Source: Actinomycetes bacterium (GTDB lineage: Bacteria; Actinomycetota; Actinomycetes; Mycobacteriales; Mycobacteriaceae). Taken from it: a stretch of DNA of 32,000 nucleotides. A program made the translations under genes and the position numbers. The stretch is from assembly GCA_023460175.1 (NCBI GenBank), contig JAEWRC010000104.1:52470-84469 (forward strand), given 5' to 3'. Positions 18,783 through 27,239 of the stretch are shown here, piece after piece. The first letter of the stretch is position 1; the number at the start of each line of letters is the position of its first letter. Below the pieces are notes generated by a model. The model was given only the letters and a program-made list of their open reading frames with translations. It had not been told where the DNA came from and did not search any database.

Positions 18783-19070
18783 TCAGAAGCCGCCGGCCAA
18801 GCGGGCGTCGAGCCCAGCTGCGTCTTCCTGCGACTGGTTGCCGCGCTGCCGGGTCTGGGTGATCTCGTTGAGAACTGTGTCCATTTGCTGCGAGATCTGA
18901 ATCTGCTTCTCTTGCAGCGCCATAGCAGCTTGGCCGTCATAGACGCCCTGCAGCGCGACGAAGACCTGGTTGACCTCTTCACGCATCGCTTGAGCGTTGT
19001 TGGTCGCACCCTGGATGTCGTCCAGTCCGGCGTAGTTGGCGGCGTACTGATAGCGGATCATGTCGCTCAT
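18783..19070 (-). CDS. WXG100-family protein, EsxA/EsxH-like (95 aa), WXG replaced by Y-D-G
   Basis: Its size, position as the second gene of a pair, and N-terminus M-S-D-M-I-R-Y-Q-Y-A-A-N-Y-A-G-L-D-D-I-Q-G resemble EsxA/EsxH N-termini. The central turn reads G-V-Y-D-G-Q (18933-18941). Confidence 0.75.
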   Translation of the reverse strand: MSDMIRYQYAANYAGLDDIQGATNNAQAMREEVNQVFVALQGVYDGQAAMALQEKQIQISQQMDTVLNEITQTRQRGNQSQEDAAGLDARLAGGF

Positions 19071-19088
19071 TGTCGAACCCCTTTTCGT

Positions 19089-19355
19089 TTAGGCGCTGTC
19101 GTTTTGGACGTGGGCGATGATGTCGGACTTACCTTTCTCGACAACCTGCTGCAGGTTGTTGAGGACCGCGCTGAAATCCTCGTGGTGCTGCGCCATGAGC
19201 TTGCGAAACATCAGCGCCCTGCTGCCCTGCCAGGAGCTGGACATCGCCTCTGTGGAGTCGAGAATCTTGTTGGCCAGATCCCTGACTTGCATCATCTCGC
19301 TGTCGATTTGATTGATCTTCGCATCAGCCTCGGTCTGTGAAAGATTGAGCTGCAT
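19089..19355 (-). CDS. WXG100-family protein, EsxB/EsxG-like (88 aa)
   Basis: Central S-S-W-Q-G (W-Q-G at 19224-19232). An AGAGGAAG RBS lies just upstream of ATG 19355. It ends 18 nt before the partner gene. Confidence 0.8.
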   Translation of the reverse strand: MQLNLSQTEADAKINQIDSEMMQVRDLANKILDSTEAMSSSWQGSRALMFRKLMAQHHEDFSAVLNNLQQVVEKGKSDIIAHVQNDSA

Positions 19356-19429
19356 AACTTCCTCTCATATCAGTTCCGGAGTGTATCGCCGGATGGCGGT
19401 GGAGAATTCACGACAAAAGCACTGTTGTG

Positions 19430-24202: not shown

Positions 24203-24370
24203 ATAACAACACCCTATTGCGGTTCAGAACTTAGTACAATGACGAACATCCGCCTCAGATCGGGCGCGACCGGAGAGATTGAATCACTCGCGCTCGCCGT
24301 CGTTTCCAACGACATCTCGATGGTCACGGCTTTGTGCATCTCGGCTCAGGGAGGAGACAGGTCACCGGCG

Positions 24371-26188
24371 ATGAGTGGGACCAGCGACGCCCAACGGGTA
24401 TTCGATGCCGGCGTGCTGTCGCTCGGTATTCCGATCGACGGCCTGGAGACCGAGCGCGATCTCGCGTATGCCGCGCTGGCCTTTAAACGCGCCACCGAGT
24501 ATGACCCCGACATGTGCGATGCCTGGCTGGGCCGTGCCGTTGCCGGCGACACCAGCCCGGAGGTCATCTACCACCTGTACCGCACCAGCAAGTCCTCGTT
24601 GTTTCGCGAGCAGCGCCGCACCGGCATTCCGCCCGGCGCGCTGTGCGGGCGATTTCAGACCGGGCTGTACCTGGACTACCCGCTTGCCACCAAGACCGAG
24701 ATCTGGCTCGCGTATGCCGCCGGCATGATTGGCGCCAAAGATTACAGCGAAGCCGAGCAGGTTCTCGACGAGTTGGCCATCCTGCGCGCCGCGATGCCGG
24801 ATCGAGATGAGGCGGCCGGCGAGATCTGTTCCTACATCCGGGGGGTCCTGCATTTCACCACCCAGCGCTGGCCGGACGTGTTGACTGCGCTGAGCAGTTC
24901 GGCGTCGTTCGAGGATCCGTTCATGGCCGCCGGCGCCCACCTCATGGTGGGTTCGGCCTGTGCGCAGATGGGTCTGTTCGGGGAAGGGATCCGTCGGCTG
25001 GATCAGGCGATCGAGGGCACAGTCCCGTTGGCGCGCCGAGCAGCGGAGTTCTGCAAGGGCTTGACGCTGCGCGAGATGGGTAATGAGCAGGAGGCACGTG
25101 ACATCTTCGAGCGGATCTACAGCGAGGAACCGGGATTCGAGGCGAACGCCGCGGCATTGAAGGACCCGAAGTACCGCCTGGTCATCACGTCGAAAGAAGT
25201 CATCGACTCACGTACAGACAGGTGGGACCCGGCCAGTGCCCCCAGCGCGGAAGAACTTCTCGGCGACGAAACGTCTGAACGTGGCAACGAGTACCTGCGT
25301 GCGGCACAACAAGAACTGGATCGGCAGATCGGATTGTCGGAGGTCAAACTGCAAGTCGCCAAACTGAAGTCGGCAGCGATGCTGGCAAAGGTGCGCGGCG
25401 ACAAGGGCCTGAACGCTGCGGCCCGCACGCTGCACCTTGCCTTCACCGGACCTCCCGGTACGGGAAAAACCACAATCGCCCGAGTCGTCGCAAAGACGTA
25501 CTGCGGGCTCGGCCTACTGCGGACGCCGAACGTCGTTGAGGCGAAACGCAACGACCTCGTCGGGCAGCACCTCGGCAGCACAGCGATCAAGACATCCGCG
25601 CTAATCGACTCGGCGATGGACGGGGTGCTGTTCATCGACGAGGCCTACTCGTTGATCCAGACCGGGTTGTCGGGCGGCGACGCGTTCGGGCGGGAAGCGG
25701 TGGACACGCTGCTTGCACGGATGGAGAACGACCGCGAACGCCTTGTCGTCATCATCGCCGGATACGACGCCGAGATCGATCGGTTCCTTACGTCCAACGA
25801 AGGTCTGACCTCTCGCTTCTCCAAGCGAATCCGGTTCCAGTCGTACAGTCCGCTGGAACTGGGCGATATCGGGCGGCTGATTGCAAGATCCCGAGACTCG
25901 GATCTGTCGGAGGCGGCCTACGAGGAACTCGTATCGGCGTGCACCACCCTGTGCCAGGGCGAGGCGCCTGACTCGTCGGGCCAGTTGCGTCGGCGCATCG
26001 ACCTTGTCGGCAACGGGCGGTTCGCGCGCAACGTGGTTGAAGCCGCGGAGGAAGAACGCGAGTACAGGCTGAGTGAAAGCTACGGTGCAAACCTGCAGGA
26101 TCTCGATGAAACCCAATTGATGCGCATCGAACTCCCGGACATGCAGGCTGCGCTCAAACAGGTGCTGGGCATGCTCGCTGTGGGCTAA
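24371..26188 (+). CDS. eccA: EccA-type ESX AAA+ ATPase (TPR-like N-domain plus CbxX-type AAA+ domain)
   Basis: ...Y-D-P-D-M-C-D-A-W-L-G-R... N-domain, A-L-K-D-P-K-Y-R-L linker, Walker A G-P-P-G-T-G-K-T-T (about 25448-25474), Walker B V-L-F-I-D-E-A-Y, and L-L-A-R-M-E-N-D-R-E-R-L-V-V-I-I-A-G-Y. It is collinear with M. tuberculosis EccA1 from memory. The ATG 24371 start was chosen by alignment to the EccA N-terminus; the ORF is open from 24239. Confidence 0.9.
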   Translation: MSGTSDAQRVFDAGVLSLGIPIDGLETERDLAYAALAFKRATEYDPDMCDAWLGRAVAGDTSPEVIYHLYRTSKSSLFREQRRTGIPPGALCGRFQTGLYLDYPLATKTEIWLAYAAGMIGAKDYSEAEQVLDELAILRAAMPDRDEAAGEICSYIRGVLHFTTQRWPDVLTALSSSASFEDPFMAAGAHLMVGSACAQMGLFGEGIRRLDQAIEGTVPLARRAAEFCKGLTLREMGNEQEARDIFERIYSEEPGFEANAAALKDPKYRLVITSKEVIDSRTDRWDPASAPSAEELLGDETSERGNEYLRAAQQELDRQIGLSEVKLQVAKLKSAAMLAKVRGDKGLNAAARTLHLAFTGPPGTGKTTIARVVAKTYCGLGLLRTPNVVEAKRNDLVGQHLGSTAIKTSALIDSAMDGVLFIDEAYSLIQTGLSGGDAFGREAVDTLLARMENDRERLVVIIAGYDAEIDRFLTSNEGLTSRFSKRIRFQSYSPLELGDIGRLIARSRDSDLSEAAYEELVSACTTLCQGEAPDSSGQLRRRIDLVGNGRFARNVVEAAEEEREYRLSESYGANLQDLDETQLMRIELPDMQAALKQVLGMLAVG

Positions 26189-26204
26189 CGAACGGAATGC
26201 GGAG

Positions 26205-27239
26205 ATGACACAACCGGCGGATACCGGACCAGTGCGGCTGCCACAGCCCACAACCGACCTGTCTGCGTCGACGCCGTTCACGAGTGCCCCGCCGACCACG
26301 CCGCCGGCGGGGGTACCGACGAACGGAGAGTTGGGCCTGACCCGTAGCCGGCCTGTGCCACCAGCGGGCTGGCGCAAGGCAGTGTACCGTGCGACCGGCT
26401 TCAACCCAGGTGAATCTGCCAAGCAGAGCCGCCAGCGGGCGGTGATCCACCGGGTCAACCAGCCGGTGCGGGGCGCCTTCAGCGTGGCGGTGCTTTCGCA
26501 GAAGGGCGGCGTCGGCAAGACGACGACCGCCGTCGGTCTGGGGGCCACGCTGGCGGCGATGCGTGGCGACCGGGTGATTGCGGTGGACGCCAACCCTGAT
26601 TTCGGTACGCTGGCGCAGCGCGGCCCGGGCGAGACCGGCTCCACGGTGCGCGATGTGCTGCTCGACGAGAACATCGTTCGGTATTCCGACATGCGCGGCC
26701 ACACGTCGCAGGGTTCGAGCGGGCTGGAGATCCTGGCCTCAGAGCGCGATCCGGCAACTTCGGAGGCCTTCTCCGAAGCTGACTACCGAGGGGTGCTGGA
26801 CGTCCTGAAGCGCTTCTACAACGTGATCCTGACCGATTGCGGTACCGGTCTGGTCCATTCGGCGATGGCCGGGGTGCTCGACGCGGCCGATATGATCGTC
26901 ATCGTGGCCTCGCCTGCGGTGGATTCGGCACGCAGCGCACTGGCCACTCTGGATTGGCTCACCCGGCATGGCTACTCGCGCCTGGTTCCGTGGGCGACGG
27001 TGGTGGTCAGCGCGTCTCGGCCGGGTGCGCTGGGGCTGGATATCCATCAGTTAGCCCGCGGCTTCCTTCCTCGGGCGCGCGCCCTGCACATCATCCCGTT
27101 CGACGATCACCTGGCCGAGGGGTCAGAGATCCATCCGGACCTGCTGAGCCGCCAGGCCCGGCAGGCTTTCCTCGAACTGGCCGCCACCGTTGCCGATGGT
27201 TTCTCCGCCGTGCGCGCCACGGAGCTCGGCGGCGCCTAA
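26205..27239 (+). CDS. EspI-like ParA/MinD-family ATPase with Pro/Thr-rich N-terminus
   Basis: Deviant Walker A S-Q-K-G-G-V-G-K-T-T-T (about 26497-26529). The preceding G-W-R-K-A-V-Y-R-A-T-G-F-N-P-G segment is typical of EspI/Rv3888c-like ESX-associated ATPases. It starts 17 nt after the eccA stop. Confidence 0.8.
   Translation: MTQPADTGPVRLPQPTTDLSASTPFTSAPPTTPPAGVPTNGELGLTRSRPVPPAGWRKAVYRATGFNPGESAKQSRQRAVIHRVNQPVRGAFSVAVLSQKGGVGKTTTAVGLGATLAAMRGDRVIAVDANPDFGTLAQRGPGETGSTVRDVLLDENIVRYSDMRGHTSQGSSGLEILASERDPATSEAFSEADYRGVLDVLKRFYNVILTDCGTGLVHSAMAGVLDAADMIVIVASPAVDSARSALATLDWLTRHGYSRLVPWATVVVSASRPGALGLDIHQLARGFLPRARALHIIPFDDHLAEGSEIHPDLLSRQARQAFLELAATVADGFSAVRATELGGA

Follow-up and report, generated by a model that had tools for sequence, protein, structure and literature searches.

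An eleven-gene ESX accessory and substrate module of probable ESX-4-bis lineage without a nearby membrane core in a Mycobacteriaceae contig

A 32,000-nucleotide stretch of DNA from a soil member of the Mycobacteriaceae (assembly GCA_023460175.1, contig JAEWRC010000104.1, positions 52,470 to 84,469; hereafter the window) was found to contain eleven genes of a type VII secretion system (T7SS, ESX) at positions 18783-27239. According to profile-checked open reading frames (ORFs), the minus strand carries nine of them and the plus strand two, in two divergent operons separated by a single conserved intergenic region that contains a -10-like box. The minus operon encodes p107, a YbaB-like protein, p94, p429, a PE protein, a PPE protein, EspG and two Esx-like proteins; the plus operon encodes EccA and then a short ParA/MinD ATPase. 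Judging from sequence comparisons, this locus is probably a detached or paralogous arm of the ESX-4-bis (ESX-4EVOL) lineage, comprising cytosolic accessory proteins and substrates, whose membrane core is encoded elsewhere. The G+C content of the window is ~65%, and the window matches a 204,764-bp Mycobacteriaceae metagenome scaffold (ENA ERZ28597669, LEMO22-1 scaffold_40).

The features of the module are given below in window coordinates. Pfam matches were judged by gathering scores, and the NCBIfam models TIGR03922 and TIGR03930 by their curated cutoffs; aa stands for amino acids and dN/dS for the ratio of nonsynonymous to synonymous substitution rates.
18783..19070, minus strand: 95-aa Esx-like protein (earlier called esxA-like); PF06013 E 2e-3 and TIGR03930 E 3.7e-5, both below cutoff; dN/dS 0.17
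19089..19355, minus strand: 88-aa WXG100 protein with W-Q-G (earlier called esxB-like); PF06013 E 1.6e-4 and TIGR03930 E 3.7e-5, below cutoff; dN/dS 0.17
19430..20242, minus strand: EspG chaperone, 270 aa; PF14011 over the full length, E 3.4e-41, 141.9 bits (cutoff 27); dN/dS 0.20
20239..21315, minus strand: PPE-domain protein, 358 aa; PF00823 E 4.8e-15, 56.4 bits (cutoff 26); dN/dS 0.10
21371..21667, minus strand: PE protein, 98 aa; PF00934 E 3.4e-10, 40.5 bits (cutoff 22); dN/dS 0.12
21700..22989, minus strand: p429, WXG-containing, Ala/Gly-rich, 429 aa; weak matches of orthologues; dN/dS 0.15
23003..23287, minus strand: p94, Ala-rich and helical, 94 aa; weak matches of orthologues; dN/dS 0.10
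23520..23897, minus strand: YbaB/EbfC-family (EspL-like) protein, ORF of 125 aa (120 aa in the source-scaffold call); PF02575 E 5e-6, 27.0 bits (cutoff 25.5); dN/dS 0.11
23879..24202, minus strand: p107, first gene of the minus operon, 107 aa; weak matches of orthologues; dN/dS 0.18
24203..24370: divergent intergenic region with the AACTTAGTACAAT motif at 24228-24240 and a GGAGGAG ribosome-binding site before the ATG at 24371
24371..26188, plus strand: EccA AAA+ ATPase, 605 aa; TIGR03922 615.4 bits (cutoff 466.65), PF21545 E 2.6e-110; dN/dS 0.06
26205..27239, plus strand: ParA/MinD-type P-loop ATPase, 344 aa; PF13614 E 3e-12, PF01656 E 1.5e-11; dN/dS 0.10

The initial annotation, made from the sequence alone, had placed an eleven-gene locus of ESX substrates, a chaperone and ATPases at these coordinates, which hold, and the EccA, EspG, PE, PPE and YbaB proteins all passed profile searches, with 615 bits to TIGR03922 for EccA and E 3e-41 to PF14011 for EspG. 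EccA consists of a TPR N-domain and a CbbX-like AAA domain (matches to PF21545, PF00004 and PF17866), and its Walker A (GPPGTGKT) and Walker B (VLFIDEAY) motifs are intact, as are the Walker motifs of ParA. M. fortuitum and soil metagenomes contain many orthologues of EccA, with 82-89% identity and a length of 602-605 aa. The PE and PPE domains scored above the Pfam cutoffs, and the two genes adjoin each other in a locus that also carries espG. It was confirmed that the PPE-domain protein, which begins with MGFTNIVW, lacks the P-P-E tripeptide. The two Esx-like proteins reached PF06013 scores of 18.9 and 22.3 bits, compared with a gathering score of 27.3. The 95-aa protein has no WXG but carries a C-terminal tail, ...QSQEDAAxLDxHLAGGF, that is conserved in the alignment of its orthologues (72-81% identity in 16 core-less copies), and an SSWxG motif is conserved among orthologues of the 88-aa protein. 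The size, pairing and context of these two proteins fit the WXG100 family, with profile scores below the cutoff.

A membrane core was searched for in the window and, on the source scaffold, in 10 kb further to the right and 3 kb further to the left. None of the genes eccB, eccC, eccD and eccE, and no mycP, was present in the 21.8 kb next to the module on its esx side or in the 14.7 kb that follow ParA, in agreement with the claim of the initial annotation that no core flanks the locus. Of the genes that together make up a complete T7SS locus (eccB, eccC, eccD and mycP with an esx pair), the window contains the esx pair and, besides it, accessory genes alone. The core genes that define ESX-4-bis were likewise absent from the window and its 3-kb and 10-kb extensions. 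From the ESX-4EVOL accessory set, eccA, espG, an espI-like gene, pe and ppe were present, with 46-78% identity to their counterparts in complete loci with two eccD genes; eccE, which is also in the published set, was absent. The membrane channel is therefore probably encoded elsewhere in the genome or more than 20 kb away. The flanks contain other kinds of genes: domain matches agree with the TetR and esterase genes assigned to the left and with the cupin, aminotransferase and xthA genes assigned to the right. In full, the left flank comprises genes for TetR, an Abhydrolase_3 esterase, a WhiB-like protein and a 515-aa protein, two small ORFs and a giant ORF, and the right flank comprises genes for a cupin, an aminotransferase and an Exo_endo_phos (xthA-like) protein.

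The module had been described as ESX-1-flavoured, and this was not supported by comparison with reference proteins and with complete loci. Against solved structures, the EccA N-domain scored 167 bits with EccA5 (E 7e-48), 107 bits with EccA3 (E 8e-30) and 100 bits with EccA1 (E 1e-27). EspG was remote from, and about equally similar to, EspG1 (8e-8), EspG5 (4.5e-6) and EspG3 (1e-4). These references covered types 1, 3 and 5, with EccA2 and EspG2 outside the set. The nearest relatives with a core were those of M. gordonae, a M. arabiense megaplasmid and Mycobacterium sp. 21AC1. Among plasmid records, the sole close match was the 434-kb plasmid pJCM18538 of M. arabiense (EccA 71%, EspG 48% identity), in which eccE, eccB, two eccD genes, an EspI-like ATPase gene, mycP and eccCa share one region with p429-like, PE, PPE, EspG, WXG and EccA/p107/YbaB-like genes. 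The M. arabiense EccB, used as a query, led to loci of this complete layout in two genomes, that of Mycobacterium sp. 21AC1 and another (L033), where one operon encodes WXG, EspG, PPE, PE, p45x and p92. In M. gordonae (L020; EccA 78%, EspG 59% identity), genes for EccC, EccD, MycP and an EspI-type ATPase follow directly after esxA, with EccA, p107 and YbaB-like genes on the opposite side. The M. gordonae and M. arabiense loci both contain a pair of small YbaB-like genes; such a pair was not found in the 21AC1 complete locus (L028) and was not among the called genes of L033.

The homologous complete loci (L024, L028, L033 and, in M. peregrinum, L034/L035) have the core order with two eccD genes that matches the published definition of ESX-4-bis (PMC4779608; PMC7478629). 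ESX-4-bis has been reported without PE/PPE and espG (Dumas, PMC4779608) and ESX-4EVOL with both (Newton-Foot, PMC4791881). Cores of ESX-4-bis or ESX-4EVOL have been reported in M. fortuitum (PMC8752049; PMC4791881), and ESX-4-bis-type cores were present in all 26 M. fortuitum genomes examined in one study (PMC8752049). On the evidence of these comparisons, the accessory set appears to belong to the ESX-4-bis lineage. The initial annotation had also regarded the position of espG, before the esx pair, as a departure from canonical loci. This order is real, but it is not a peculiarity of the present copy: in the complete loci espG likewise lies between the PPE gene and the esx pair, and the order is therefore a trait of the lineage.

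It is accordingly improbable that the module is an espACD-like satellite of ESX-1, that is, an accessory set feeding a resident ESX-1 machine. The EspA/EspE-like, EspC-like, YbaB (EspL-like) and ParA (EspI-like) components do recall ESX-1 accessory genes, species of the fortuitum group do have ESX-1 (PMC4791881; PMC8752049), and one orthologue is named "EccA1" in a RAST-type source. However, the EccA N-domain is nearer to EccA5 than to EccA1, EspG is not meaningfully nearer to EspG1 than to EspG5, and every homologous complete locus has the ESX-4-bis and not the ESX-1 core order. Moreover, the EccB of the related M. peregrinum core scored 226 bits with EccB3 and 215 bits with EccB5 but 136 bits with EccB1, and plasmid ESX and ESX-4EVOL loci, too, contain EspI-like and YbaB-like genes.

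Trees built by neighbour joining from EccA, EspG, PPE and ParA agreed in separating three clades. Clade A comprises the complete loci found on the M. arabiense plasmid and in 21AC1. Clade B consists of complete loci of slow growers, namely M. gordonae (in which the core was seen), M. asiaticum and two metagenome-assembled genomes (MAGs). Clade S, the sister of B, contains all the core-less copies, including that of the window. The ParA tree also separated two paralogue groups: the ParA of the window is a short paralogue, with 55% identity, of the EspI-type ATPases that adjoin mycP in complete loci. Both arrangements coexist in 21AC1, which has a complete clade-A locus on contig 13 (49-70% protein identity to the window) and a core-less clade-S copy on contig 1 (63-83%). 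A 7.3-kb MAG contig (L003), the EspG of which groups with that of the window, contains esxA, a 248-aa gene, a gene for a 752-aa EspA-like protein with TPR, an EspI-type ATPase gene and a MycP gene. Because of this arrangement, it may be concluded that an S-type substrate operon beside a core exists. As far as trees and synteny indicate, the simplest history would be that the module descends from a complete locus, of a type still found in M. gordonae, M. asiaticum and apparently L003, by loss, relocation or partial duplication.

The core-less state was not confined to the window. A scan with EspG, with one genome per species, yielded 21 loci. Searches with all window proteins (tblastn) revealed the same eleven genes, in the same order and orientation and without a core, in at least 16 other genomes of the M. 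fortuitum group and its relatives, including M. setense, M. septicum, M. porcinum, M. peregrinum, M. houstonense, M. senegalense, M. syngnathidarum, M. deserti, M. fortuitum, Mycobacterium sp. MMS18-G62 and sp. 21AC1. No core genes were found within the ~10 kb read on each side in these carriers, among which M. senegalense and sp. MMS18-G62 are represented by complete chromosomes. In codon alignments of 16 core-less copies, pairwise Nei-Gojobori comparison gave a median dN/dS of 0.06-0.20 at a median dS of ~0.4-0.76 for all eleven genes, which indicates purifying selection. None of the genes had internal stops; apparent stops in EccA were an artefact of tblastn high-scoring segment pairs that ran into a non-coding stretch upstream of the true start.

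By these substitution patterns, the genes are working ones and not a wreck. Since selection keeps every gene intact, the module would have to work with a distant core. It is very improbable that the locus is a decaying remnant, left without a secretion function after deletion of its core. Flanking genes do vary among lineages, which points to rearrangement, and a MAG carries a reduced relative without EccA, ParA, p107 and YbaB genes and with a frameshifted espG. Nevertheless, the eleven genes are intact in 16 genomes with the dN/dS values given above, the promoter-like box and the ribosome-binding site are conserved, and the Walker motifs of both ATPases are preserved. The reduced relative (L023, MAG MFD04212.bin.2.228, 6942-11411) extends from the p94 homologue to esxA, has TetR and esterase genes on its other side, and itself looks like a decaying or rearranged module.

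The esx side of the module was studied further. The left part of the window contains the following features.
1-11463, plus strand, open at the window start: giant polymorphic-toxin-like ORF with Abhydrolase_8 and Gln_amidase domains
11460-11717 and 11724-12260, plus strand: two small ORFs that follow the giant ORF
12353-13900, plus strand: 515-aa protein with no Pfam match, after the small ORFs

The giant ORF continues for at least 3 kb to the left of the window (L030 15-14503) and thus exceeds 4,800 aa and 14 kb. Its modules, an Abhydrolase_8 domain and a papain-fold glutamine-deamidase (Gln_amidase) domain, are each duplicated internally (residues ~1359-1744 and 1852-2247, 78%; residues 2291-2475 and 2699-2889, 60%). 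A WXG100_2 domain stands at the start of relatives of this ORF, which therefore resembles a polymorphic toxin dependent on T7SS. A frameshift near window positions 6550-6680 interrupts the ORF in the ENA copy of the scaffold. In the fortuitum group, the module likewise has as neighbours the 515-aa gene (~70% conserved), a DUF7161-like ORF and the C-terminal part of the giant ORF; at the ESX-4-bis core of M. peregrinum (L035), a gene for a 37% identical paralogue of the 515-aa protein and a DUF7161 gene lie beside the EspI gene. Window positions 1..13900 are thus probably cargo associated with the module, in which the small ORFs and the 515-aa protein may be immunity or helper genes.

It is possible, though rather unlikely, that the module is instead the distal end of one contiguous ESX-4-bis locus of ~50 kb or more, the core of which was pushed beyond the window by insertion of the toxin-immunity cassette and of the TetR, esterase and WhiB genes. 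Several observations favour such contiguity and to that extent weigh against a detached module. The left boundary lies beyond the stretch read, as the giant ORF runs past the window and the additional 3 kb. In both M. gordonae and L003, it is on the esx side that the core is found. In L003, the order is MycP, EspI, the 752-aa gene, the 248-aa gene and esxA, and in L038 it is the giant ORF, the DUF7161-like ORF, the 515-aa gene, the 752-aa gene and, further on, esxA, which would put the giant cassette between the EspI gene and the 752-aa gene. The cassette thus sits where EspI and MycP sit in L003, and the core could adjoin the giant gene upstream. The orientation of the giant ORF is that expected of the core, the contig coordinates of two M. 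peregrinum strains would be compatible with collinearity, and in a published ESX-4-bis locus eccA lies ~17 kb from mycP within a region of ~40 kb (PMC7478629).

On the other hand, the core contig of M. peregrinum GCA_001665625.1 has neither module genes nor a giant ORF over a stretch that starts 5.6 kb upstream of EccB and ends 10 kb downstream of MycP, and at this core the 515-aa protein's paralogue is in the opposite orientation. In 21AC1, the only ESX-4-bis-type EccB seen belongs to a locus that has an EccA and substrates of its own and is on a different contig. No contig reaching into the giant gene carried a core, and in L040 the genes that immediately precede the start of a giant-type toxin are a YbaB-like gene and a small helical gene, with no core. 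In further searches, no overlap was found by DNA similarity between the M. peregrinum core contig and the contigs with core-less modules, and the N-terminal part of the giant ORF yielded eight homologues, none of them from the fortuitum group. In a metagenome scan with the giant ORF, all contigs started inside the giant gene and none bridged upstream.

Two further observations count against the preferred reading. The ESX-4-bis core of M. peregrinum lies in a cluster shared at ≥90% identity with M. mageritense, and in M. mageritense, as in an integrative and conjugative element, eccA is located ~17 kb downstream of mycP (PMC7478629). Loci of the M. mageritense type thus have an eccA of their own, so that in such strains the module would be a second arm and not the one that is missing. 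In addition, none of the EspC/EspA-like and YbaB-like assignments of p94, p429 and p107 reaches its family threshold. The preferred reading remains that of a detached or paralogous arm. With regard to the proposal of the initial annotation that the locus is a self-contained module using a core encoded elsewhere, the possession of its own EccA and EspG, the lack of a nearby core and its conservation in this form were upheld; "self-contained satellite" may be an overstatement, as the giant ORF runs off the window.

The remaining substrates and helpers were characterized through their orthologues, because p429, p94 and p107 had no Pfam or NCBIfam match from the window protein alone. Orthologues of p429 share a WXG helical core with an invariant FPWGWAAAIAAANKA stretch and, at the C-terminus, the invariant motif FLHT(S/T)DQGxEIVGDLG...ELRI. 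Ten of the 16 matched WXG100 weakly, and three of 16 matched EspA_EspE (PF18879) weakly, with a best E of 4.6e-3. The earlier description of p429 as a WXG protein holds as to the motif; its profile matches are weak and divided between WXG100 and EspA/EspE. The p94 protein had been called PE-like; its orthologues are more, if weakly, EspC/EspF-like, three of 19 giving a weak match to T7SS_ESX_EspC (PF10824; best E 9e-4). Therefore, p429 is a probable EspA/EspE-like substrate and p94 its probable small partner of the EspC/EspF type, with matches in both cases below the family threshold. PDB profile searches with the p429 and p94 alignments gave no match, and an AlphaFold2 (AF2) model of p429 from the single sequence was unusable (predicted confidence score, pLDDT, of 43). 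In the ENA scaffold, p429 is called as 348 aa (L026 6325-7371), compared with 429 aa at window positions 21700-22989.

For p107, the earlier label "espD/H-like" was not confirmed, the only signals being weak matches to YbaB and to DUF2694, each in 11 of 18 orthologues. Alignment of p107 with its YbaB-like neighbour by hhalign gave E 9e-4 at a probability of 23%, and a Foldseek search of the PDB with the AF2 model (pLDDT 70) gave no match at E<1. The protein may possibly have a degenerate YbaB-like fold, as suggested by matches below threshold. A unit of a YbaB-like gene, a small helical gene and a gene for a large WXG protein recurs before toxin genes in L040 and in the M. arabiense plasmid; the small/large pair may thus be what the YbaB-like proteins serve. 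In L040, this stretch (339-1107) encodes a YbaB-like protein of 155 aa and a small helical protein of 98 aa directly upstream of the apparent WXG100_2 start of a giant-type toxin ORF.

A mechanism may be proposed from the established roles of these families. EspG would keep the PE/PPE dimer soluble, the YbaB-like proteins would stabilise the EspC/EspA-like pair, and EccA would process substrates in the cytosol. The C-terminal tail of the Esx dimer would then dock on the EccC ATPase, and export would proceed through an EccB/C/D/E-MycP machine encoded at another site of the genome. The likeliest machine, by kinship of sequence, would be an ESX-4-bis-type core, and ESX-1, ESX-3 or ESX-4 might serve instead. 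It may be suggested more tentatively, as a possibility that is on balance doubtful, that a portable "cytosolic half" (EccA, ParA, EspG, three substrate pairs and two YbaB-like helpers) is maintained by selection although no cognate core is near, redirects an ESX machine that is distant or heterologous and travels with giant WXG-type polymorphic toxins carrying glutamine-deamidase and hydrolase modules. If so, it would serve environmental and opportunistic mycobacteria as an effector island in competition between bacteria.

Several known systems resemble the module in part. In M. tuberculosis, espACD is an unlinked three-gene operon that encodes EspA-like and EspC-like substrates and a small helper, with the core elsewhere. 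The likeness lies in an unlinked substrate operon that relies on a distant core; however, espACD is not known to contain EccA, EspG, PE/PPE or an Esx pair, in the module of the window the small gene precedes the large one, and the matches of p429 and p94 to EspA and EspC stay below threshold. The ESX-5a, ESX-5b and ESX-5c clusters of M. tuberculosis are core-less paralogous pe-ppe-esx clusters that use the parent machine and are not known to have a dedicated chaperone or ATPase. They share with the module the nature of core-less paralogous substrate clusters, but they are known to consist of pe, ppe and esx genes alone, whereas the module has a chaperone and ATPases.

ESX-6 of M. marinum (PMC13354803) is similar as a partial ESX copy with PE, PPE and Esx genes beside a complete system and without a full core. 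In contrast to the module, ESX-6 is a recent, near-identical duplicate of ESX-1 with an eccB1 homologue (PMC13354803); the module is old (49-70% identity to the complete locus co-resident in 21AC1), belongs to another lineage and has its own EccA, EspG and ParA. The published ESX-4-bis/ESX-4EVOL loci share with it the position of espG, and the location of eccA away from the core is already in the literature. The difference is that ESX-4-bis is defined in the literature by its core, whereas the module of the window and those of at least 16 other genomes have no core in cis. Thus, ESX-4-bis/ESX-4EVOL loci and partial ESX copies such as ESX-6 were already known, and what may be new is a widely conserved, selectively maintained core-less accessory arm with its own EccA, EspG and ParA, of which no description was found in the ESX literature covered.

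These findings bear on the question of how ESX substrates are matched to one of several paralogous machines. EspG and EccA are thought to contribute to the specificity of this matching. If the core is distant, a module that lacks a channel but brings along an EspG, an EccA and three substrate pairs would act naturally in trans, and would do so in the M. fortuitum complex, which is fast-growing and genetically tractable. Selection keeps the module in this complex, which includes opportunistic pathogens. The findings may also reconcile the conflicting descriptions of ESX-4-bis, with and without PE/PPE and espG, and they link the ESX-4-bis lineage to very large toxin-like proteins with WXG-type N-termini.

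The intergenic region between the two operons was also studied. The AACTTAGTACAAT motif, which includes the -10-like hexamer TACAAT at 24235-24240, occurs once in the window, where 0 occurrences are expected by chance. It is conserved in the core-less copies and in the complete locus of M. arabiense, and partly in the loci of slow growers, and its TACAAT is probably a -10 element. The GGAGGAG ribosome-binding site is conserved as well, also at the M. arabiense locus. Scans with promoter and terminator consensus sequences performed no better on the window than on shuffled sequence. The conserved region also bears on the start of EccA, which is most likely the ATG at 24371 (605 aa) and not the opening of the ORF at 24239: orthologues are 602-605 aa long, the intergenic alignment agrees, and the first ATG of the longer ORF, at 24239, overlaps the AACTTAGTACAAT box.

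The edge of the module on the other side was indicated by the flank beyond ParA, three versions of which were seen: xthA/def in the window, glpK/PadR in M. fortuitum and aroC-aroB-efp in MMS18-G62. Because this flank differs among lineages, it may be concluded that the module ends with ParA. The right flank of the window (27415-31913; L001 11273-21311) resembles Rv0427c-Rv0434 of M. tuberculosis, with xthA, an Rv0428c-like gene, def, DUF3263, LytR_C, sodC and GCS2. Between the module and xthA, there is an insertion of genes for the cupin, the aminotransferase and a 436-aa protein without a Pfam match. The ENA scaffold represents a slightly different version of the window sequence, and its YbaB-like protein, cupin and aminotransferase differ by one or two residues.

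Beyond esxA, the copies of the fortuitum group (L025 295-4235; L018 11560-17239; L038 5485-11651) carry genes for a second EspG-like protein (259 aa), a KAS III-like protein (338 aa) and a 106-aa protein. The same stretch encodes a 588-aa protein with a weak WXG100 match and a 329-aa WXG100_2 protein (E 1e-19), to which L038 adds the 752-aa EspA-like protein with TPR. In place of these genes, the window has TetR, esterase and WhiB genes. A small RNA, Ms_IGR-7 (RF02469), was detected at window positions 18519-18635 on the plus strand, between the TetR gene and the esxA-like gene, with 93 bits against a gathering score of 45. It was considered as a regulator of the module and rejected, since it was absent from seven related loci; for the same reason, it appears to be part of the local TetR/esterase insertion. 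The WhiB-family gene (14262-14651, minus strand) lies 4 kb from the esx genes, beside a 128-aa ORF and the esterase gene. Its position recalls that of whiB6 beside ESX-1, and such a gene was absent from the related loci examined.

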